In this document: positions 33,546 through 63,380 of the stretch, piece by piece
How positions within the stretch are numbered: position 1 is the stretch's first letter
Layout of the letters: every line of letters starts with the position of its first letter
NCBI GenBank assembly: GCA_963667255.1
Contig: OY762940.1
Coordinates: 556,510 to 620,509 of the forward strand
Direction of reading: 5' to 3'
DNA: 64,000 nucleotides
From: Candidatus Cloacimonadota bacterium
GTDB lineage: Bacteria; Cloacimonadota; Cloacimonadia; G963667145
Notes under the pieces: generated by a model
Databases searched by the model: none
What the model saw: the letters and a program-made list of their open reading frames with translations, nothing else
Told to the model about the DNA's origin: nothing
Program-made: the position numbers and the translations under genes

Positions 33546-34228
33546 TGAAAAAAAAACTTTATTTCACTATTTGGGCGTTGATTTTTTTGACTTCGGGAAT
33601 TCCGTTTGTTCTCTATCCGTTGCTCTCTCCTATGAGAAAACTCAGAAATGCGGTTATCAGAGCGTTCGCTTTTTTTTATGCTCGCTTGAGCATCCTCGCT
33701 ACAGAGAGCAAATTTCAGATTGTGGGGAGAGAGAATCTGCCCGAGACGAATTTTCTGGCTGTTTGCAATCATCAGAACTTACTCGATATTCCCGTGATTA
33801 TTTGTGCTATTCCGCGGACAATTGGGTTTATTGCCAAGAGCGAGTTATACAAAGTGCCTATCTTGGCGATGTGGATGAGGCTGCTGGGATGTATTGGATT
33901 GAAACGGAGTAGTGCCAAGGCTTCCGCCGATGTTTTTCGTAAAGGCGTGAAGAAATTGAAATCCGGTCAAAATCTTATAGTGTTTCCAGAAGGAACTAGG
34001 AGCAGAGATGGCAAAATCAAGAAATTTAAAGCGGGAAGTTTCAAAATGGCTGTGTTAGCGGAAGTTCCGGTAGTGCCGATTACTTGCATAGGGACAAACA
34101 AGCTGTTTTCGCCAAACAATGTGATAAGAGTGATAATCAATCCTCCCGTGAGTTCTGCGGGCAAATCTACCAAAGAGTTGGCGGAAGAGGTGCAAAAGGT
34201 TGTGGAGAAGGGGTTGACGGTTAGTTGA
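33545..34228 (+). CDS. plsC: 1-acyl-sn-glycerol-3-phosphate acyltransferase
   Basis: Has the NHQNLLD (HX4D) and FPEGTRS acyltransferase motifs. The ATG at 33545 overlaps the upstream stop as TGATG. Confidence 0.85.
   Translation: MKKKLYFTIWALIFLTSGIPFVLYPLLSPMRKLRNAVIRAFAFFYARLSILATESKFQIVGRENLPETNFLAVCNHQNLLDIPVIICAIPRTIGFIAKSELYKVPILAMWMRLLGCIGLKRSSAKASADVFRKGVKKLKSGQNLIVFPEGTRSRDGKIKKFKAGSFKMAVLAEVPVVPITCIGTNKLFSPNNVIRVIINPPVSSAGKSTKELAEEVQKVVEKGLTVS
34162..34215 (+). repeat. Direct repeat copy 1 (within the plsC 3' coding end)
   Basis: The 54 nt match 36586-36639 with 2 mismatches. 34173-34215 is identical to 36597-36639 (43 nt). Confidence 0.95.
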
Positions 34229-34333: not shown

Positions 34334-35113
34334 TTATTTCGGAGTTACTTGCCAAGTAATAGCGTCAAAGTTGAAATCTGAAAACAATTCATTTTGACTT
34401 ATTATTTTGACATCTCCACGCCTTGTTTCTCTGTTAAAATTGTAAACTCGGTAAATAAAGGCAGAATCTTCGTATTCCTCAAAAAAGTTTTTTTCATTTT
34501 TACTCATATAAAATGGTTGATTGAAATCACCGCTTGTAGTTTTAACTTCAATATAACGAGGAGAACCGTCATCATTTATCGAGGAAATATCATAACCTAA
34601 GCCATCTCCTTGTAATCGACTCAAATGCTGAACATTTTCCGTTGCTTTCGTTCTGTCTATTGAAAGAGCATCAATTAAGCGGTCAATTTCAAACTCTTTT
34701 ATAAATTCTTCACCTTGGTCGCCTATTTCATTATTTCGGTCTCTCACTTTTTCCCAATCAACTTTACGAGCAATAAAGCGTCTTGTTTTTCCCTTTATTT
34801 TTGTTACTTCCACAGGTTGAATAACCGTTTGTGAAATAGGGTTTAGCAGAGAGAATTTGGCAGGGAGTGAACTTTTGTTAACTACAAAACCTTCATCATA
34901 TGTCTTTATTGTTTCTCTTTGGTGAGCAACAATATTTCCTATCCGTTGAATGATAAGAACTTCGATTCGTGTTGTCGAGGGTATATTGTCCTCTTCACTA
35001 AATTCTAAAACTGTGTGTAAAAGTTGTTTTACTTCTGATGTGTTTAATTCACCATAAACGGTTAATAATGGTTTAATTGCCCGTCTTATTTCTGCTTCTG
35101 TATGTGCTGCCAT
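34334..35113 (-). CDS. DUF3883-domain protein (PD-(D/E)xK-like, candidate restriction endonuclease)
   Basis: The C-terminal region IGDQGEEF...GLGYDISS...YIEVKTTSG...FYMSKNEKNFF...FIYRVYNF matches the DUF3883/NO VEIN C-terminal pattern. It lies 9 nt downstream of the methylase gene. Confidence 0.7.
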   Translation of the reverse strand: MAAHTEAEIRRAIKPLLTVYGELNTSEVKQLLHTVLEFSEEDNIPSTTRIEVLIIQRIGNIVAHQRETIKTYDEGFVVNKSSLPAKFSLLNPISQTVIQPVEVTKIKGKTRRFIARKVDWEKVRDRNNEIGDQGEEFIKEFEIDRLIDALSIDRTKATENVQHLSRLQGDGLGYDISSINDDGSPRYIEVKTTSGDFNQPFYMSKNEKNFFEEYEDSAFIYRVYNFNRETRRGDVKIISQNELFSDFNFDAITWQVTPK

Positions 35114-35122
35114 TACTCTTTC

Positions 35123-36322
35123 TTAATAGTTCGTTATCATTAAATGTTCTGTCTCTCGGTTATTTCTATTCATAAAACTAACCAAATAGGTTTTGTCAAA
35201 CGATTGGATTTTTAATCCTTTGTTATTGTATAATTCAAAAATGAAATCAGTATTTTTAATTATCATCATCCATTTTGCTTTGCATTTATTGATAAGATAT
35301 TTCGCTAATCTTTCTTGGTCTTTTCTTGTAAACTCGTTTTTTGCATAAGTGCTAAACTCACTGTCGTATGGTGGGTCAAGAAAAACAAAGTCATTCTTCG
35401 AAGGATTGTGTTTATAAAAGAAATCTTCAAAATCTATATTCTCAATTATTGTACTGTCAAGTAAAGATTTTAGTTCTTTTGTTTTTAGATAATCAACTTT
35501 TTTGGAAAAGTTTTTTCGATTATAAGCAATTCCTCCATAAGGGACATTAAAATCACCGTTTGAATTATATCGAAACATTCCACTATAGGCGAAATTTCTA
35601 ATAAAAAGAAAGATAGCAGATTTAAAAGCGTTATTAATTCTATATTTTTCTGTGTTATTGTAGATGTGACGAAAATGCATATAGAAAGCACTTTTAAGTG
35701 CTGTTTCTATATTGTCTAAAATATCGTTATTTGGTAAAACTTGTTTGATTTTTTCAAGTTCCTTCATTCGTTTTATTTTACGAATTAGATTTATTTTAAT
35801 TTCTTTAATAAAGTTTTCAATATTGAAGTTGAAGATAGTAGAAAACATTCCATTAAATTCTTCAGCATGAGATAAAATAAATTCAAAAAGGATATCTTTT
35901 AATTTGGTTTCATCAATCAAGTCATCAGAATACTTTTTGTATGTTATTATAAAAAAATCTGAGTTTCTTTCAATTACGGAGGTCAGTAAATTCCAATTAT
36001 GTATAATCTCATCTACGGCTTTGAAAAAAAGTTGTTTATTACCATTTGTAATACTTTGATACAAATCAATTAACTCATCTGATTTGTCATTAATGTAGTA
36101 TTTGTTTGCTTGTAAAGCTGTGTACACAGCTCCACCTCCAACAAATGGCTCAAAATAGTTTTCAAATTTTTCGGGGAGATTAGGAACAATATATTTTAAT
36201 TCTTGTTCTTTTCCTCCAGCCCATTTTATAATTGGGTATAACCGTCTTGCCTTAACATAATTGCCTATACCTAATCCAATTTGGTTATAGGTTGCAACAG
36301 GTTCTTGTACTATATTATTCAT
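35123..36322 (-). CDS. Dam-family (alpha-class, D12) N6-adenine DNA methyltransferase
   Basis: Has KWAGGK, FxGxG (FEPFVGGGAVY), FRYNSNGDFNVPYG and DPPY (FVFLDPPYDSEF) in the alpha-class order. At 399 aa it has a long helical region between motif I and the FNVP motif. Confidence 0.85.
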   Translation of the reverse strand: MNNIVQEPVATYNQIGLGIGNYVKARRLYPIIKWAGGKEQELKYIVPNLPEKFENYFEPFVGGGAVYTALQANKYYINDKSDELIDLYQSITNGNKQLFFKAVDEIIHNWNLLTSVIERNSDFFIITYKKYSDDLIDETKLKDILFEFILSHAEEFNGMFSTIFNFNIENFIKEIKINLIRKIKRMKELEKIKQVLPNNDILDNIETALKSAFYMHFRHIYNNTEKYRINNAFKSAIFLFIRNFAYSGMFRYNSNGDFNVPYGGIAYNRKNFSKKVDYLKTKELKSLLDSTIIENIDFEDFFYKHNPSKNDFVFLDPPYDSEFSTYAKNEFTRKDQERLAKYLINKCKAKWMMIIKNTDFIFELYNNKGLKIQSFDKTYLVSFMNRNNRETEHLMITNY

Positions 36323-36465
36323 ATTACAAAGTTAATTTTTTCAAGTAATTAACAATGCTATTGTTGAAAAGTTGTCGGTTCTAAGCATGAACGCTAACAT
36401 CTGTATAAACTCAATGGTATTTATCCTTTCAAATTGGCATGCTAAGCGCAATTACATTTAGTTTT

Positions 36466-36556
36466 CTTTATATTTATTTCAAAATTTATTTGAGGCTAAA
36501 AATCCAAGAATATATGTCAAGCCAAAAATCTCAAATCCTAGATAAGCTCTCTAAAA
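36466..36556. repeat. 91-nt intergenic repeat, copy A
   Basis: 36466-36522 is identical to 38468-38524 (57 nt), and 36531-36556 is identical to 38534-38559 (26 nt). The two blocks are separated by an 8/9-nt variable patch. Confidence 0.95.
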
Positions 36557-36585
36557 CTTTTCCCGAAGATAGGGATTTCAGTATA

Positions 36586-36682
36586 CAAATCAACCCAAGA
36601 GTTGGCGGAAGAGGTGCAAAAGGTTGTGGAGAAGGGGTTAATTTTAAGTGAAGTTTCCCAATCCCCTATTTCAGTTTTGTAG
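36586..36682 (+). pseudogene. Detached duplicate of the plsC 3' terminus
   Basis: In the plsC-equivalent frame it reads KSTQELAEEVQKVVEKGLILSEVSQSPISVL*. The first 18 codons match the real plsC tail (KSTKELAEEVQKVVEKGL), with one synonymous and one K-to-Q change. No upstream coding continuation exists. Confidence 0.7.
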
Positions 36683-36708: not shown

Positions 36709-38187
36709 TTATTCTAAATAGATAATGCGGTCAGCAAGAGCAATAATTTCATCATTCTTTGGAGCAAGTTGTGCATCATTATTTTCTGCGATGAAACCAA
36801 TTATGTTAATATCTTGGTCAATTTGATATTGTTTCAATTCTTTAAATTTAACTGGCTCTTTAAATCCAAAATGTTCTAACTTATTTTCTTTGATGACACG
36901 CCCATCTAAATTCAACATTTCATAAAGCAAAGGAGAAATATAAGGATGTCTAATACAATTTGAAATCAAATTTGCATCAATAGATTCTTTGTATATGATT
37001 TCATCACCTTTTATTTTGTCTCTTATTATTTCAGAATTTTCTTGGTTAATTATTTCTGCAATTGTATGGACATTTTTATTTTCTTGTTCAATATTAAAAA
37101 CTGTTAGTACAGTTCGCATATCAACATTTTTTTGGGGTTCATTTCCTTGATACTCTGCAAATATAACAGCAAGGCTACAGTCACAAATATTAACTTTTCT
37201 CAATGTATCAATACTTGAATAATCGCCATTAAAATAAATAATTCCATTTAAGCTTGGGTTTTCTTTTTCAGTTACTAAAACAATTCTTTTAGAATAGAGT
37301 TTCTTGTTTTTCAATATTTCTTCGATTACTTTTGAAGTGGAGGATGTATATCCGCAAAGAACAATATGGTCTTTAATAGTTAGTTTCCCAAGTTTTCCTT
37401 TTTTAATGTTACTCATAATCTCTCCCGATTTAGTTGATATAGTAGAAATAAAAAAACTAATAAACGAAATATTTGCAATCAAAGTAAATGAAGAAAAAAT
37501 TTTGCCCATTACAGTAGTTGGGGCATCATCACATATCCCAACAAGTTTCAATGTATAATTTAAATAGTGAAAGTAAGAATTTGCATTACCTACCTGTGAT
37601 TCTGACAAAAATAGTGCAAATGAATTAATTATTACAATAAATAATGTTCCCAGTAAGAGAATAGCTATCAAAAAGTAGGATTCTTTGAAACTCCTTACTA
37701 AAATAGAAATATTTGAAAAAGATTTTTTTACTTTTAATAGTCTAATAAATTTTAAAAATTTAATAAACCTTAATAATCTACAGGTTCTAAAAAATCGAAG
37801 AAACCGAATAATTGGAATAAGAGAAACTAAATCGATAATTGGAAAGGGAGATAAAATCCATTTAACTTTATTTGTAATAGCATAGATTATAGAACCATCT
37901 TCGTCTTTTATATCTTCTATGAAATCGGAAGAAATATAAAAGCGAGTTAGATATTCAATAGCAAAGAATACTGTTAAGGAAGTATCTATATTGAATAAAT
38001 AATTCGGTAAGTTTAAATCTGAAAAAAATAATTCAAAAAATGTAGAAATAACAGAAATAAAAATAATAAGGAGCAAAATTAAATCTACATATACTCTTTT
38101 GGAATTATTTTCACTCTCTAACCACCAGTAAAGAAAGCCCTTTAATCCTTTTTGCTGTTTTTCCGCATATCTATCTAATTTTGACAT
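36709..38187 (-). CDS. Six-TM voltage-sensor-type ion channel with a C-terminal RCK/TrkA-N-like domain and a non-canonical pore
   Basis: S4-like segment RFLRFFRTCRLLRFIKFLKFIRLLK, with a basic residue every third position (9 of them). The pore-loop region is TLKLVGICDDAPTTVMGKIF, with GIC where K+ channels have GYG. After S6 comes HIVLCGYTSSTSKVIEEIL, a degenerate GxGxxG of RCK domains. Confidence 0.7.
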   Translation of the reverse strand: MSKLDRYAEKQQKGLKGFLYWWLESENNSKRVYVDLILLLIIFISVISTFFELFFSDLNLPNYLFNIDTSLTVFFAIEYLTRFYISSDFIEDIKDEDGSIIYAITNKVKWILSPFPIIDLVSLIPIIRFLRFFRTCRLLRFIKFLKFIRLLKVKKSFSNISILVRSFKESYFLIAILLLGTLFIVIINSFALFLSESQVGNANSYFHYLNYTLKLVGICDDAPTTVMGKIFSSFTLIANISFISFFISTISTKSGEIMSNIKKGKLGKLTIKDHIVLCGYTSSTSKVIEEILKNKKLYSKRIVLVTEKENPSLNGIIYFNGDYSSIDTLRKVNICDCSLAVIFAEYQGNEPQKNVDMRTVLTVFNIEQENKNVHTIAEIINQENSEIIRDKIKGDEIIYKESIDANLISNCIRHPYISPLLYEMLNLDGRVIKENKLEHFGFKEPVKFKELKQYQIDQDINIIGFIAENNDAQLAPKNDEIIALADRIIYLE

Positions 38188-38196
38188 TTACTATTT

Positions 38197-38457
38197 TTAA
38201 TAAAGTCCAATAATTTTACCAATAATAACGGGAATAGGTTGGTCATTTCGGTCGTAGGTGTTTGAAGAGTTAGCTCCAGATTTTGGTTTTACATGTGTTG
38301 CAGATACTTCCCAAGAATTTGAAGATGATGCTCCTGAGCGTGGTTTGATTTTCTTGCCGTCAAATTCCCAAGAATTTGATAGCAAGGCACCGCTTTTTGG
38401 TTTTAATTTTTTGCCGTCCCACAGCCAATCGCGTGGTAACTCAATTTTGTTAGCCAT
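38197..38457 (-). CDS. Small protein with three 19-aa tandem repeats, function unknown
   Basis: AAGGAAAAA lies 4 nt upstream of the ATG. The repeats are WLWDGKKLKPKSGALLSNS, WEFDGKKIKPRSGASSSNS and WEVSATHVKPKSGANSSNT, followed by a hydrophobic tail (IPVIIGKIIGLY). The stop is 9 nt from the channel start. Confidence 0.6.
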   Translation of the reverse strand: MANKIELPRDWLWDGKKLKPKSGALLSNSWEFDGKKIKPRSGASSSNSWEVSATHVKPKSGANSSNTYDRNDQPIPVIIGKIIGLY

Positions 38458-38467
38458 AAAATTTTTC

Positions 38468-38559
38468 CTTTATATTTATTTCAAAATTTATTTGAGGCTA
38501 AAAATCCAAGAATATATGTCAAGCAATAAGTCCTCAAATCCTAGATAAGCTCTCTAAAA
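38468..38559. repeat. 91-nt intergenic repeat, copy B
   Basis: See copy A. This copy lies between the Fic stop (38570) and the small-protein start (38457). It contains TTGACA on the minus strand 60 nt upstream of that start. Confidence 0.95.
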
Positions 38560-38569
38560 TTTTTTCTAT

Positions 38570-39532
38570 CTATGAAGGGCGATATCTATATTTGGTTAAT
38601 CTTTTCTCGCCTATTTTTATTAAGATTTTATTTTCGACTGCATTTTTCAGGTCGCGACTCGCTGTTGCAGAAGAAATATCTTTATTATGTCTCATATAAT
38701 CTTGACGCGAAAATTCATTGTTGCCAATAAAACTTTTGAATAATTCTATTCTATCTTTATCTGTTGGGCTCAATTGTTGGGTTCTCAACAAATCTTCAAG
38801 AGCGAAGTTAATGATTTCTAACATAAATTCTATAAAAAGGGTAGATTCTCCTAAGCTATTAGATTTTCCAAGAACATTGTAATAGTTCTGTTGTTTTTCT
38901 TTTATCAAAGTTTCAATTGGTAAAAATTCAAATACTGGGGAATACTCTTTTAAAATCACTGTTTGCCATAGTCTTCCCATTCTTCCGTTTCCATCAATGA
39001 ATGGATGGATGAATTCAAATTCGTAATGAAACACGCAACTCTTTATCAAGATAATGTCATTGTCGTTTTTTAAATAATCGAATAGATTTTTTAGTAAAGG
39101 GTAAACCATATCTCCAGGAGGAGCCAGATGTGCTAATTGATTTCCTTTTAAAATCCCAACTGCCGTATTTCTTATATTGCCAGCATTATCAACGAGGTTA
39201 TTCATCAGAATTTTGTGAGCCGAACAAAGTGACTTCATATCATAAACTTTGAATTTATTTAGATTTTTGTAAACATTGATGGCATTTTTTACCTCTATAA
39301 TATCTTTTTCAGGGGCTAAAACTTTTTTGTTGTCTAATAAATCCGTTATTTGCTCAATAGTCAGAGTGTTCCCTTCGATTTCTAAAGATGCTTGAATTGT
39401 TTTAATTCTGTTCTTTTTTCTAAGTTCTGTAGGGGGCTTTGTAAGACGAGCAGCCTTTATTTCTCCAATTTTTTCCGAAATGGAAGAGATTAAATTTAAA
39501 ATTTTGTTTGTTATTTTATAAGGAGGTTTCAT
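38570..39532 (-). CDS. Fic-family protein (class II, with N-terminal inhibitory motif and C-terminal wHTH)
   Basis: Active-site motif HPFIDGNGRMGRL, inhibitory-helix motif SLEIEGN ([ST]xxxE[GN]) near the N-terminus, and a C-terminal SSATASRDLKNAVENKILIKIG winged-helix-like segment. Confidence 0.9.
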   Translation of the reverse strand: MKPPYKITNKILNLISSISEKIGEIKAARLTKPPTELRKKNRIKTIQASLEIEGNTLTIEQITDLLDNKKVLAPEKDIIEVKNAINVYKNLNKFKVYDMKSLCSAHKILMNNLVDNAGNIRNTAVGILKGNQLAHLAPPGDMVYPLLKNLFDYLKNDNDIILIKSCVFHYEFEFIHPFIDGNGRMGRLWQTVILKEYSPVFEFLPIETLIKEKQQNYYNVLGKSNSLGESTLFIEFMLEIINFALEDLLRTQQLSPTDKDRIELFKSFIGNNEFSRQDYMRHNKDISSATASRDLKNAVENKILIKIGEKRLTKYRYRPS

Positions 39533-60401: not shown

Positions 60402-61295
60402 ATGAGCGGGACTAACACGGAAATTATATTCATCCACGGCTTAGGGCAGAAGTTGCCTGAGGAGATTTTGCTTTCTTGTTGGCGAAAGTTCTTGCTTGCC
60501 AGTCAGATTGACATCCCCGAAGAGACTATGAGTATGGCTTATTGGGCGGATTGTATCCCAAATCATATTCCGGAAAGCATCCGGCCATCCACAGACAAAG
60601 CGGTTGAGGATTTACTGGATTTTGTGTCTGCGAACAAAGACAGTTTTCATGTCGGCACAGGAGATGAAGTTGACAAATTTTTCGCTCACAAGGGGAAAGA
60701 GCTGATAAGCATTTTAAACTCCGCAATAGTCCTCAAGGAAAACATTATCAGTTCCGTGTCTCAGGACGCAAAATATTATATCAACGATTCTCATATTGGG
60801 CAACAGATGCGAGGGATTTTGCTCTCCAAAATTGTTTCCGCTTGGGAGAGAGACAAAAAAGTGGTGGTTATCGCTCACAGTTTGGGTTCTGTGATTGCTT
60901 ACGATTTGTTTTGGCAATTGTCATATCGTGCTGAATATGAAGAATATAGAGATAAAAAAATTGAAGCTCTTTTTACACTCGGTTCGCCACTGAGCAACGA
61001 AGAAATTTTGGCAAATCTTCTTTCGTCATCTTATCGCAAGAAAAGTTCGTTTTATCCCACAAATATGCAAAATTGGTTCAATTTTTCTTGTCTCGGAGAT
61101 GTCGTTACTCACAATTCGAAAATCGGAGAAATTTTCTTGGAGCCAATGAAAAACTTGGGTCTTTTGCAAGATATTCGAGATTATAAAAATCTGTATAATC
61201 CGTATGTTTGCTCGGGGTATCATAACCCGCACAAATCCTATGGCTATCTTGTTCAACCCAAATTAACTAAGTGCTTGAATAAAATTTTATTTTAA
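60402..61295 (+). CDS. Alpha/beta-hydrolase-like protein (lipase/esterase fold)
   Basis: Has a nucleophile-elbow-like VVVIAHSLGSVIAYD and the N-terminal IFIHGLG. Confidence 0.55.
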   Translation: MSGTNTEIIFIHGLGQKLPEEILLSCWRKFLLASQIDIPEETMSMAYWADCIPNHIPESIRPSTDKAVEDLLDFVSANKDSFHVGTGDEVDKFFAHKGKELISILNSAIVLKENIISSVSQDAKYYINDSHIGQQMRGILLSKIVSAWERDKKVVVIAHSLGSVIAYDLFWQLSYRAEYEEYRDKKIEALFTLGSPLSNEEILANLLSSSYRKKSSFYPTNMQNWFNFSCLGDVVTHNSKIGEIFLEPMKNLGLLQDIRDYKNLYNPYVCSGYHNPHKSYGYLVQPKLTKCLNKILF

Positions 61296-61412
61296 GCAAA
61301 AAATATAGCAATTTTTTCATTTTGTTGTGAATTGATAGTTGAAAATCTTGAAACTTGGGCGGGTATTTTAGTTTTTACCGCCTATTTGTAAATTATTTTA
61401 GGAGTATATGCA

Positions 61413-62948
61413 ATGAAAAAAATTGGAGAAATTGTTAAGGGTAAAAATAGAATTAAAAGTTTGTTATTGTTCCTAATTGTAAGTTCGGTCTTTTTAAATA
61501 TTTTAACATTAGATTACAGCCATGATTGGGGAGGAGATTTTGCTGGATATGTTGGTCAAGCAAATGCTCTTGTAAATGACAATGTTGAGAAATTCATAAA
61601 AGATTCGGAATTTCGATGTATGTTTTCTGAATCGAAGGTGATAGGTCCTGTCGCTTATCCTTGGGGATACCCTCTAATTTTATATTTTCCCATCAAAATT
61701 TTTGGAATAAATTTTTTAATTTTAAAAGTAGTAACTTTCATTTTTTTTATTGCTTCTTTATTTATAATTTATTTTTTGTTCAAAAATGAAATATCCAAAA
61801 TAAATAGTTTGTTATTGATACTTATTTTTTCGGCTTCACCTTTCTTTTTTAGTTTTAAACAAAATGTGTTATCAGATATTCCTTCTCTGTTTTTCGCACT
61901 ACTTTCCCTTTTATTAATAAAAGTAATTTACTATAATGATGTAAACAAATTATCTCACAAAAAAGAATTTTTTCTATTGATTCTATTAGGACTGTCTATT
62001 TTTTTGAGCCTATTCATAAGAACAAATTTAATTATTCTTCTACCTTTAATGTTTATAGTTCAGGTATTAAAATATAAAAAGACAATAGTGAATAAGAAGT
62101 ATATATTTCATTTTCTTTTACCGTATTTAATTGTTGGTTTTTCCTATATGCTTACAACTATAGTTTTGCCAATTTCATCATATTCTAGCGTATTATCCTT
62201 TGGGCTTTTTAAACTATTCCCAATAAGAGCCATAAGAAATATTTATTTTTATTTGTATGTTTTTAGTATTTTTTGGGGGAATTGTTCAGAATTTTCTAAA
62301 CTAATGATGAGAGCTAATATATATGGTTTGGATTTATTTGCAGTAATGCATGGATTTTTTTCAGTTTTTTTTGTAGTAGGATTTTTGCACTCTGCAAAAG
62401 AAAAGTCTTTTTTTGTATTTTTTTTCTTAATTTCTATCGTATTGTTTATATGTTTTCCTTATTTACAAGGATTAAGATATGTTGTAACATTGATCCCTTT
62501 TTATTTATTATTTATATTTAAAGGAATTCTAAAAATAAAATTTAACAAGATAATTGGAGTTAGTTCTCGGAAGATTTTGTATTATGTTTCGTTGCTTTTG
62601 TTTTTGTGCTTTTTCATTCAAAATATTGGGTCTATTGTTGTTGGGAAGACTAAGTATGCAAATAAAGTTGATGGTCCTTTTTCAGAAACTTCTCAAGAAT
62701 TGTTTTCTTATTTAAAGAAGAATACTTCTCAAGATTCAATTATAAGTTTTTTTAAACCAAGGGTTCTTTATTTTTTTACAAAAAGAAAATCTTTTGAAAT
62801 AAATAGTGTCCCCTATTTTCAAAAAGTTAACCCTAACTATTATGTGTTTTATAAAGGTGGCGATCAAAAAATGCATTTATTTTTGAAAAATAATTATAAG
62901 CTAATTTTTGAGAATAGATGTTTTGAAGTTTTCAAAATATTTGATTAG
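61413..62948 (+). CDS. Polytopic membrane protein, GT-C-fold (ArnT/PMT/GT39-like) glycosyltransferase candidate
   Basis: 511 aa with more than 10 predicted TM helices. The first extracytoplasmic loop has Asp/aromatic residues (LDYSHDWGGDFAGY), and there is a soluble C-terminal domain. The gene is extremely AT-rich. Confidence 0.45.
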   Translation: MKKIGEIVKGKNRIKSLLLFLIVSSVFLNILTLDYSHDWGGDFAGYVGQANALVNDNVEKFIKDSEFRCMFSESKVIGPVAYPWGYPLILYFPIKIFGINFLILKVVTFIFFIASLFIIYFLFKNEISKINSLLLILIFSASPFFFSFKQNVLSDIPSLFFALLSLLLIKVIYYNDVNKLSHKKEFFLLILLGLSIFLSLFIRTNLIILLPLMFIVQVLKYKKTIVNKKYIFHFLLPYLIVGFSYMLTTIVLPISSYSSVLSFGLFKLFPIRAIRNIYFYLYVFSIFWGNCSEFSKLMMRANIYGLDLFAVMHGFFSVFFVVGFLHSAKEKSFFVFFFLISIVLFICFPYLQGLRYVVTLIPFYLLFIFKGILKIKFNKIIGVSSRKILYYVSLLLFLCFFIQNIGSIVVGKTKYANKVDGPFSETSQELFSYLKKNTSQDSIISFFKPRVLYFFTKRKSFEINSVPYFQKVNPNYYVFYKGGDQKMHLFLKNNYKLIFENRCFEVFKIFD

Positions 62949-63101
62949 GAAATTTGGATAAGTTTTTAATTTATAACTTTAACATGGGCAAAAAGTTAAT
63001 TATTCTTAAAATTTTACTGAGAAACTAATTTTACTTGACTTGGATAACTGCTTAATTTTTTTGGTTTGGCAAGAAAATATTAAATTGAAGGAATTTGCAT
63101 A

Positions 63102-63380
63102 ATGGTTAAGTTAAGATTGAAAAGGATGGGCAGAAAAAATATCCCGTTTTACAGAATTGTGGCTGTTGATAGTCGCAAAAAACGAGATGGAGCATATATA
63201 GAAGCCTTAGGTTATTATAGTCCCAAAAGTGAAGATGATAGGGTAAAAATTGATGCGGTGATTGCTAAAAAATGGCTCAATTTGGGTGCTCAGCCTACAG
63301 ATACAGTAAAATCTCTGTTGAGAGAAGAAGGTATTCTCAAGGGTTGGCACGAAGAAAAAGTTGCTGCGGCTAAAAACTAA
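63102..63380 (+). CDS. rpsP: 30S ribosomal protein S16
   Basis: Has [30 protein letters not shown], the canonical S16 N-terminus. Confidence 0.95.

Follow-up and report, generated by a model that had tools for sequence, protein, structure and literature searches.

Prokaryotic relatives of the BK and MthK channels have served as structural models, and their biology is largely unknown. MthK has two transmembrane helices, a pore with the canonical TVGYGD filter and a single RCK domain, and it has no voltage sensor. In BK (Slo1) and in Kch of Escherichia coli, K+ channels with 6–7 transmembrane helices, segments S1–S4 of the voltage-sensor type are joined to the pore and the RCK region, which in BK consists of two tandem RCK domains in a protein that also has an S0 segment. 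Both glycines of the signature and its Thr/Tyr residues are required for building the four K+ sites, and changes in the signature give non-selective cation channels, as in NaK, in CNG/HCN and in the G-to-S "weaver" form of GIRK2. NaK, CNG/HCN and CASTOR/POLLUX/DMI1, which share the pore fold and have an altered signature, pass Na+/K+/Ca2+. Here we analyzed a channel gene (36709..38187, minus strand) located in a stretch of 64,000 nucleotides from a Candidatus Cloacimonadota bacterium (contig OY762940.1, positions 556,510 to 620,509), hereafter the window, whose own numbering is used throughout. The 492-amino acid product was recognized from the translation of its open reading frame, from Pfam and from sequence and fold matches to MthK and BK. 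It shares with BK and Kch the combination of a voltage-sensor-type S1–S4, a pore and RCK, and with MthK the single RCK domain that follows the pore. However, BK and Kch keep GYG, while the window channel is GYG-less and has 10 charges in S4.

Two described defence systems are also relevant to this gene, which lies in a defence-type island beside a gene for a small repeat protein (the mini-protein). In a type X Thoeris system the effector is an ion channel (bioRxiv 10.64898/2025.12.03.692087), and the CRISPR-associated Chp1 forms a tetrameric pore that is gated by a ligand and depolarises the membrane (bioRxiv 10.64898/2026.08.05.743128). Both are precedents for ligand-gated membrane-depolarising effectors in defence islands.

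Architecture of the channel and its filter-less clade

The protein is composed of an S1–S6 voltage-sensor and pore module followed by one C-terminal RCK domain. Ion_trans was matched by residues 33–252 (39.4 bits, cut-off 25) and TrkA_N was also found (28.9 bits, cut-off 23.8), but the best Pfam domain match was Slo-like_RCK (46.5 bits, cut-off 24). A sequence search of the Protein Data Bank (PDB) retrieved MthK (3e-8) and BK/Slo1 (7e-7), as well as Kv/KCNQ channels. The AlphaFold2 model, built with 18 homologues as input, had a mean predicted local distance difference test score (pLDDT) of 72. Its helices correspond to S1 (31–54), S2 (62–86), S3 (100–121), S4–S5 (125–196), a short pore helix (206–214) and S6 (226–262), and the C-terminal domain is a beta-alpha-beta fold of the Rossmann type. 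When this model was compared with the PDB by Foldseek, a check proposed in a preliminary description of this DNA, MthK and Slo1 were the best matches (E 7e-15 to 1e-13). The S1–S6 topology of the voltage-gated superfamily is present, including a P-loop that re-enters between S5 and S6, and there is an Arg or Lys at each third S4 position. S4 itself (residues 128–155; 37723..37806, minus strand) carries 10 Arg/Lys residues with an exact period of three (R128, R131, R134, R137, R140, K143, K146, R149, K152 and K155). This length is a family trait, since the median for the clade described below is nine charges and its GYG-bearing sister, P0022, has 10. The window protein (P0001) is very likely a genuine channel belonging to that clade. 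Residues 30–253 also match the phage family phrog_7872 (1.7e-19), better than they match Pfam Ion_trans.

The difference from known potassium channels is at the selectivity filter. An HMMER alignment placed the channel sequence tlklvgicddapttvmgkif under tiatvgygdyspstplgmyf of MthK, and the placement by MAFFT in family alignments was identical. Therefore, the position of the T-x-G-[YF]-G-D signature of K+-selective channels is occupied by LVGICD (residues 215–220; 37528..37545, minus strand). A word-indexed search identified 17 relatives of the channel with 36–62% identity, from Treponema pedis, Treponema sp. OMZ 840, Deferribacterales and metagenomes, and a genome scan added homologues from eight Aquimarina species and one Muiribacteriota metagenome-assembled genome. 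An exhaustive search of 1.84 billion representatives with the channel profile produced 247 matches below 1e-30, and 109 full-length matches were included in the filter alignment. A deletion of three residues in the pore helix, together with the lack of a canonical T-x-G-Y/F-G-D, is shared by 28 of these sequences, whereas most of the others retain WW-x-x-V-T-x-T-T-V-G-Y-G-D. The 28 deletion-bearing sequences, which come from Treponema, Aquimarina, Deferribacterales and metagenomes, form one clade (support 1.0) in a maximum-likelihood tree, and their sister sequence P0022 retains TVGYGD; the clade is derived from GYG potassium channels.

At the G-Y-G positions the members of the clade have GIC, GLG, GFT, GLV, ELV, DFA, KIG, GLF and others. 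Both glycine positions remain G in 6 of the 28, one of which (P0019) has G-Y-G followed by K, and the residues found at the first glycine position include K, Q and N. Over the six positions of the filter, the column entropy reaches 1.90 bits in the clade and 0.16 bits in the GYG relatives. The best-conserved parts of the clade are the RCK N-lobe (1.38 bits), S4 (1.49 bits) and S6 (1.55 bits), and S5 and a post-filter D-x-P-x-T-x-x-G-K motif are kept across it. The pore scaffold, the gate, the voltage sensor and the ligand ring are constrained in this clade while the filter varies freely, and we consider with high confidence that it represents a new sub-family, devoid of the filter, among the voltage-sensor channels gated by RCK. 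The confidence of the AlphaFold2 model near the filter is below 50 at residues 217–220.

The residues at the filter make it reasonably likely that the window channel is not K+-selective. Since changes in the signature are known to give non-selective channels, non-selective conduction is the most economical inference, and it can be said with moderate confidence that the protein probably conducts cations in this manner. Known families that are not K+-selective differ from this clade in that each keeps a filter motif of its own, while the clade has none and has the three-residue deletion in addition. CASTOR and POLLUX share with it the presence of RCK domains, and a channel found at another locus (L052, described below) matches Castor_Poll_mid; the window channel had no match to that family in the Pfam search. 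A second, separate group of GYG-less RCK channels (for example, P0089, P0091, P0102, P0115 and P0140) has a conserved motif of the A-G-E-P-[IV] type; its filter is a conserved alternative, unlike the hypervariable filter of the channel clade.

The RCK domain (residues 271–492; 36712..37377, minus strand) was delimited by Pfam. It is of the Rossmann type and C-terminal to S6, as in RCK/KTN proteins, and the invariant residues of the family are concentrated in it; its N-lobe is the most conserved part. The segment CGYTSST (residues 278–284) aligns by HMMER to CGWSEST of MthK, the best match in sequence and fold, and neither has the dinucleotide-binding GxGxxG motif of the NAD/ATP-type KTN domains. 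Canonical nucleotide binding is unlikely because CGYTSST has the pattern of the MthK segment. The Ca2+ ligands of MthK (D184, E210 and E212) are not reproduced as a set: only the equivalent of E210 (E378) is a conserved acid, and the two remaining positions are occupied by F343 and I380 in an HMMER alignment of 20% identity that leaves room for a shift of one or two residues (E345).

The linker between S6 and RCK includes a candidate internal start site, in which GGGAGAG is followed by four nucleotides and the ATG of Met258 (37414..37426, minus strand). The GGGAGAG sequence stands within a gene of 27% GC, and Met258 is at least 90% conserved among the family members. In the Treponema-type loci (L001–L003 and L016) and in L012, L076 and L079, GGAG-like runs stand 4–8 nucleotides ahead of the homologous Met, and they persist although the encoded residues vary (GEI, ESV, EVV, VED). 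Among the loci scored, all outside Aquimarina, such a run was not found in L077 or L078, and L081 has GGGTGA instead. In MthK, translation of the soluble RCK begins at an internal methionine, M107, of the corresponding linker, slightly nearer to the first RCK strand. By analogy, the conserved Met and its upstream GGAG suggest a shared internal start, and initiation at Met258 may, as in MthK, yield an RCK subunit in soluble form.

These results agree in most points with the preliminary description. The full voltage-gated layout followed by RCK that it proposed is supported by Pfam, by the sequence matches in the PDB and by the AlphaFold2 and Foldseek results, and its replacement of TVGYGD by LVGICD was confirmed by the alignments with HMMER and MAFFT. 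The non-standard ion selectivity that it expected is very likely, judging from a clade with no full signature, a pore helix shortened by three residues and a filter that is hypervariable. The period of three in S4 was correct, but the count of nine basic residues has to be raised to ten by the addition of K155. The glycine motif of RCK, which it called degenerate, is indeed not GxGxxG; this is normal for Ca-type RCK domains such as those of MthK and BK and does not constitute an oddity. Its reading of the motif as a sign of unusual ligand control is unsupported, since MthK has the matching state.

The channel and mini-protein cassette

The mini-protein gene (38197..38457, minus strand; 86 amino acids) precedes the channel gene. 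Only 9 nucleotides (AAATAGTAA) separate its stop codon from the channel ATG, and there is no Shine-Dalgarno (SD) sequence for the channel. The SD sequence of the mini-protein, AAGGA (about 38466–38470), is located just downstream of one of two junction repeats of about 100 nucleotides. Copy 2 of this repeat (38464..38564) is directly upstream of the mini-protein gene and is 94–97% identical to copy 1 (36462..36561), which lies between the channel cassette and a restriction-modification (R-M) cassette. Just past the channel stop codon there is an orphan 3′-end of plsC (54 nucleotides, 36586..36639) that is 96% identical to positions 34162–34215; plsC was assigned by the Pfam Acyltransferase match. 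The resulting layout is plsC tail–R-M cargo–repeat–plsC tail–channel and mini-protein cargo–repeat–Fic gene. This tandem is a recombination scar in which two alternative cargos of one slot were joined, so that the mini-protein and the channel constitute one transferable unit, which competes with the R-M system for the shared slot. The junction repeats were not found in five genus-mates.

The island that includes both cassettes extends from 34.3 to 40.0 kb between plsC and argS, and every gene in it is on the minus strand, in the order Fic, mini-protein, channel, Dam-family methyltransferase and NOV_C/DUF3883 protein. The Fic-domain protein (38570..39532, minus strand; Pfam Fic 4e-19) is SoFic-like (PADLOC SoFic 7e-44), the methyltransferase (35123..36322, minus strand) matches MTase_II (2e-57), and the NOV_C/DUF3883 protein (34334..35113, minus strand) matches PDC-S36 (1e-34) and PD-T4-1 (5e-20). 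The annotation of the island revealed no TIR gene. The GC content of the island is 26–36%, versus about 42% in the surrounding DNA, and the channel gene is foreign in the host genome. A scan for promoters and terminators was uninformative in the AT-rich DNA, with 34 sites versus 29.6 expected. A second strongly AT-rich stretch (61000–63200, 24–29% GC) is as low in GC as the channel island. The preliminary description had placed the channel gene 9 nucleotides from the mini-protein, which the sequence confirms, and between an R-M cassette and a Fic gene in a defence-type island, which is borne out by the Pfam, PADLOC and NCBIfam matches. Its statement that the channel is the most AT-rich gene in the window (40% GC) is roughly correct, with the channel at 26.6%, although the methyltransferase gene (27.6%) and the 61.0–63.2 kb stretch (26.7%) are nearly equal.

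The mini-protein consists of three 19-amino acid beta-hairpin repeats, with the consensus W-x-x-DGK-x-x-KP-x-SGA-x-SSN, and a hydrophobic C-terminal helix. The AlphaFold2 model (23 homologues, pLDDT 75.6) shows the three hairpins and a helix at residues 75–82. The mini-protein did not match any Pfam, NCBIfam, PADLOC or PHROG family, and the comparison of its model with the PDB by Foldseek gave nothing better than E 1.6. A PDB profile match (2e-6) to WRAP-T, a designed WD40 protein, was judged to be a similarity of repeats and composition and was not taken as homology, because each stretch taken independently had E 7–32 and the repeat period is 42 amino acids in WRAP-T and 19 in the mini-protein. 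The preliminary description considered the mini-protein unique. This is not the case: a profile search identified about 196 protein clusters, with a variable number of repeats and with lengths of 66–194 amino acids among the matches listed. The named homologues, all annotated as hypothetical proteins, are from Hydrogenophaga, Haemophilus haemolyticus, Campylobacter showae, C. suis, Nitrosomonas and Rodentibacter. A search of the remaining 231 species of the host phylum did not find the mini-protein.

The genomic contexts of the mini-protein were obtained for 51 loci, which represent about 13 distinct contexts. In every one of them a same-strand neighbour is located 3–25 nucleotides away, and the partner differs between contexts. 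The commonest partner, found at 13 loci, is a family of about 237 amino acids (L044, L047, L048, L051, L054–L056, L058, L062, L063, L067 and L068) that matched nothing in Pfam, PADLOC or PHROG and that in most cases begins 4 nucleotides past the mini-protein stop codon. Other partners are GmrSD-type restriction enzymes, HAD_PNKP, DUF6946 (in two IMG/VR contigs), PD-(D/E)xK-like proteins, small transmembrane proteins and a 638-amino acid Zn-finger transmembrane protein. With so many non-channel partners, the mini-protein is not a dedicated channel subunit.

Channels of the voltage-gated type nevertheless adjoin the mini-protein in two further, independent contexts. One is a metagenomic operon, present in two diverged versions (L038–40 and L084–86), with the gene order helix-turn-helix protein–GIY-YIG nuclease–BacNaV-like channel–mini-protein. 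The BacNaV-like channel (278–290 amino acids) has the sequence FQVMTFESW, with the filter TFESW, and a coiled-coil tail. The 86-amino acid mini-protein of this operon is 66% identical to that of the window, the higher value of the two 86-amino acid homologues listed, and the operon resembles a self-standing defence module. The operon (L038, 1521–3609; L084, 1748–4484) continues into an SH3_3 gene and stands beside Abi_2-like and DUF4160 genes. In the other context, L052, a 647-amino acid protein with Ion_trans, RCK and Castor_Poll_mid matches, also GYG-less, is divergently oriented and 114 nucleotides from the mini-protein. A genome of the relatives has on average about 0.3 such channel genes; with about 24 flanking positions in the other 12 contexts, approximately 0.004 channel genes would be expected by chance beside the mini-protein versus the 2 seen, a rough estimate that indicates an excess of orders of magnitude. 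A functional coupling of the mini-protein to the channel can be suggested tentatively.

Distribution and neighbours of the channel clade

The channel gene is accessory and does not belong to the core housekeeping genes. It is present in one of the six species of the host genus, being absent in the five genus-mates, in 1 of 41 relatives, in 8 of 81 Aquimarina species and in two of the seven species of the genus that includes Treponema OMZ 840. This patchy presence in each genus counted agrees with the proposal in the preliminary description that this is not a housekeeping channel. One Aquimarina orthologue (G313:C37:27799-29256) has two in-frame TAA stop codons and is likely a pseudogene, which is consistent with a dispensable gene. 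A tblastn search for the mini-protein at 14 loci with channel homologues did not find it.

The neighbourhood evidence comes from a few dozen loci. In the eight Aquimarina species the channel is the last gene of a syntenic, same-strand series: caspase (Peptidase_C14)–139 amino acids–TIR–DUF6804–419 amino acids–306 amino acids–channel. The TIR protein is SpbK-like (PADLOC SpbK 7.6e-39) and its gene is about 3.4 kb upstream of the channel in all eight carriers, with TIR in 10 of the 81 species. Genes for DUF1508, DUF4236 and Excalibur proteins come after this cluster (L004–L009, L013 and L014; for example, L005 3207–9425), and two more Aquimarina genomes have the TIR and 306-amino acid genes without the channel. 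In the Deferribacterales locus L012, the divergent neighbour of the channel encodes a 1064-amino acid WD40-caspase protein. A HEAT-caspase protein is encoded two genes from the channel in L079, and in L078 a PDDEXK_4 gene is directly downstream of the channel, with a second Ion_trans gene nearby. The Aquimarina, L012, L079 and L078 loci represent four separate sub-branches of the clade.

A possible depolarising effector and competing explanations

We tentatively favour the reading that the channel is a conditionally depolarising effector encoded in a two-gene cassette, with the mini-protein as its regulator. The protein would be a subunit of a tetrameric cation channel, similar to MthK and BK. 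Its S1–S4 voltage sensor, whose S4 is charged and very long, and its P-loop pore would be combined in the cytoplasm with a gating ring of RCK domains, which may be completed by a soluble RCK originated at Met258. In the clade the pore helix has lost three residues and the TVGYG signature has been abandoned (LVGIC in the window protein), so the four K+ sites could not form. The pore would be expected to pass cations without K+ selectivity; if so, its opening would depolarise the cell rather than clamp it at the K+ potential. The gate would be set by the RCK ring and the voltage sensor. The channel appears to have come in on a cassette of two genes, in translational coupling with the beta-hairpin-repeat protein, and would act as a conditionally toxic, membrane-depolarising effector of the abortive-infection or toxin-antitoxin type, regulated by the mini-protein as an inhibitor or as a trigger sensor. 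A defence or toxin role of the channel falls just short of an even call. A broader proposal, in which the mini-protein family would be the common infection-sensing subunit of new two- or three-gene anti-phage systems and would release diverse effectors, including filter-abandoned channels of the voltage-gated type (BacNaV-like and RCK-type) that on opening would collapse the membrane potential, is speculative and rather unlikely. Under this proposal, channels of the MthK/BK type with an auxiliary subunit would be a class of bacterial immune effectors.

The described systems share some of these features. In type II toxin-antitoxin and two-gene abortive-infection systems, as in this cassette, a small upstream gene is coupled to that of a potentially lethal membrane protein, and the location in an AT-rich island among defence genes, where alternative cargos occupy one slot, is also similar. 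However, there is no homology to any known toxin or antitoxin, and the mini-protein pairs with many partners. The comparison with type X Thoeris was made by description, not by sequence. The window cassette has no TIR, CARF or cyclase gene beside it, and in particular no adjoining ThsB-like TIR gene. The Aquimarina orthologue clusters with an SpbK-like TIR gene that is three genes upstream, yet the arrangement is not the two-gene layout of type X (bioRxiv 10.64898/2025.12.03.692087). Chp1, in turn, differs in that its fold is not of the voltage-gated-channel type.

Several observations weigh against an effector role. The closest channel homologues (58–62% identity) have ordinary neighbours and no mini-protein. 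The closest of all, P0006 (62%), is flanked by genes for a HAD hydrolase and acetyltransferases, the Treponema OMZ 840 channel by those for glutamine synthetase and a DEAD helicase, and P0009 by those for ribosomal proteins, Obg and RsfS; P0016 and P0021 are likewise in ordinary surroundings and have no mini-protein. The partners of the mini-protein are mostly not channels, and the pair seems to be a recent mosaic, given the 39% GC of the mini-protein gene versus 27% in the channel gene. A search of IMG/VR contigs with the channel profile turned up no relative, and neither the channel nor the mini-protein had a match in PADLOC (PADLOC-DB 2.0) at E ≤ 0.1. The association of the channel with TIR in Aquimarina may reflect a single inherited event, and the lack of selectivity is deduced exclusively from the amino acid sequence. 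The main rival to the two-gene effector is an ordinary accessory cation channel, serving, for example, cation homeostasis or osmotic or electrical signalling in certain niches, that was imported with the island and whose adjacency to the mini-protein, an unrelated small gene of the island, is functionally meaningless. This explanation is quite possible, if somewhat doubtful. It accounts for the housekeeping-type genes, without defence genes or mini-protein, around most close homologues and for the absence of PADLOC matches, and the conservation of the clade across phyla with strong constraint on RCK and S4 is what a regulated physiological channel would show; in addition, physiological tetrameric channels that are not K+-selective are well known (NaK, CNG/HCN, CASTOR/POLLUX). 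But a physiological filter would be conserved, and that of the clade is its most variable part relative to the GYG relatives. Nor does an ordinary channel fit well with the patchy presence in each genus counted, the recurrence of caspase, TIR and nuclease neighbours in separate branches of the clade, the slot shared with an R-M system or the independent recurrence of mini-protein and voltage-gated-channel adjacency.

The same observations bear on two further explanations. The channel could act alone as a defence or toxic effector, with an infection signal gating the RCK or the voltage sensor and the mini-protein being an independent gene of the island. Its at least 12 unrelated types of partner, usually 3–25 nucleotides away, and the clade members that are near caspase or TIR genes without a mini-protein are in line with this possibility, which is nonetheless unlikely in view of the two further independent adjacencies to voltage-gated channels, far above chance, the 9-nucleotide coupling with no SD sequence for the channel and the inclusion of both genes in one repeat-bounded cassette. 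A non-conducting protein, that is, a decayed scaffold or one repurposed to serve, for instance, as a membrane regulator that senses voltage or a ligand, is very improbable. The freely varying filter residues, with K, Q or N at the first glycine position, the shortened pore helix and the AlphaFold2 confidence below 50 at residues 217–220 would fit such a protein; if there were no pore, it would be difficult to account for the conservation of S6, S5 and the D-x-P-x-T-x-x-G-K motif that follows the filter, and the open reading frames are intact in all genomes but one. The two-gene defence module advanced in the preliminary description thus stands in part: one cassette, a defence-type island and adjacencies to other channels speak for it, while the close homologues without the mini-protein and the lack of a PADLOC match do not. 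That description had also named what would argue against the module, namely orthologues that are ubiquitous core genes, have canonical GYG filters and lack a linked mini-protein. The orthologues are neither ubiquitous core genes nor GYG channels; the last point applies by half, as the close homologues have no mini-protein.

A clade that keeps its voltage sensor, inner helix and RCK ring constrained and lets its filter drift is a natural experiment on the purpose of the filter, and the drift points to a use in which only opening a hole on command matters. The patchy spread, the caspase, TIR and nuclease neighbours and the pairing with the mini-protein lead to a concrete hypothesis of channel-mediated abortive infection. 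If this is true, a first function would be assigned to a family of about 196 clusters of hypothetical proteins, that of the mini-protein, and the voltage-gated channel superfamily would be linked to bacterial immunity alongside the type X Thoeris effector.

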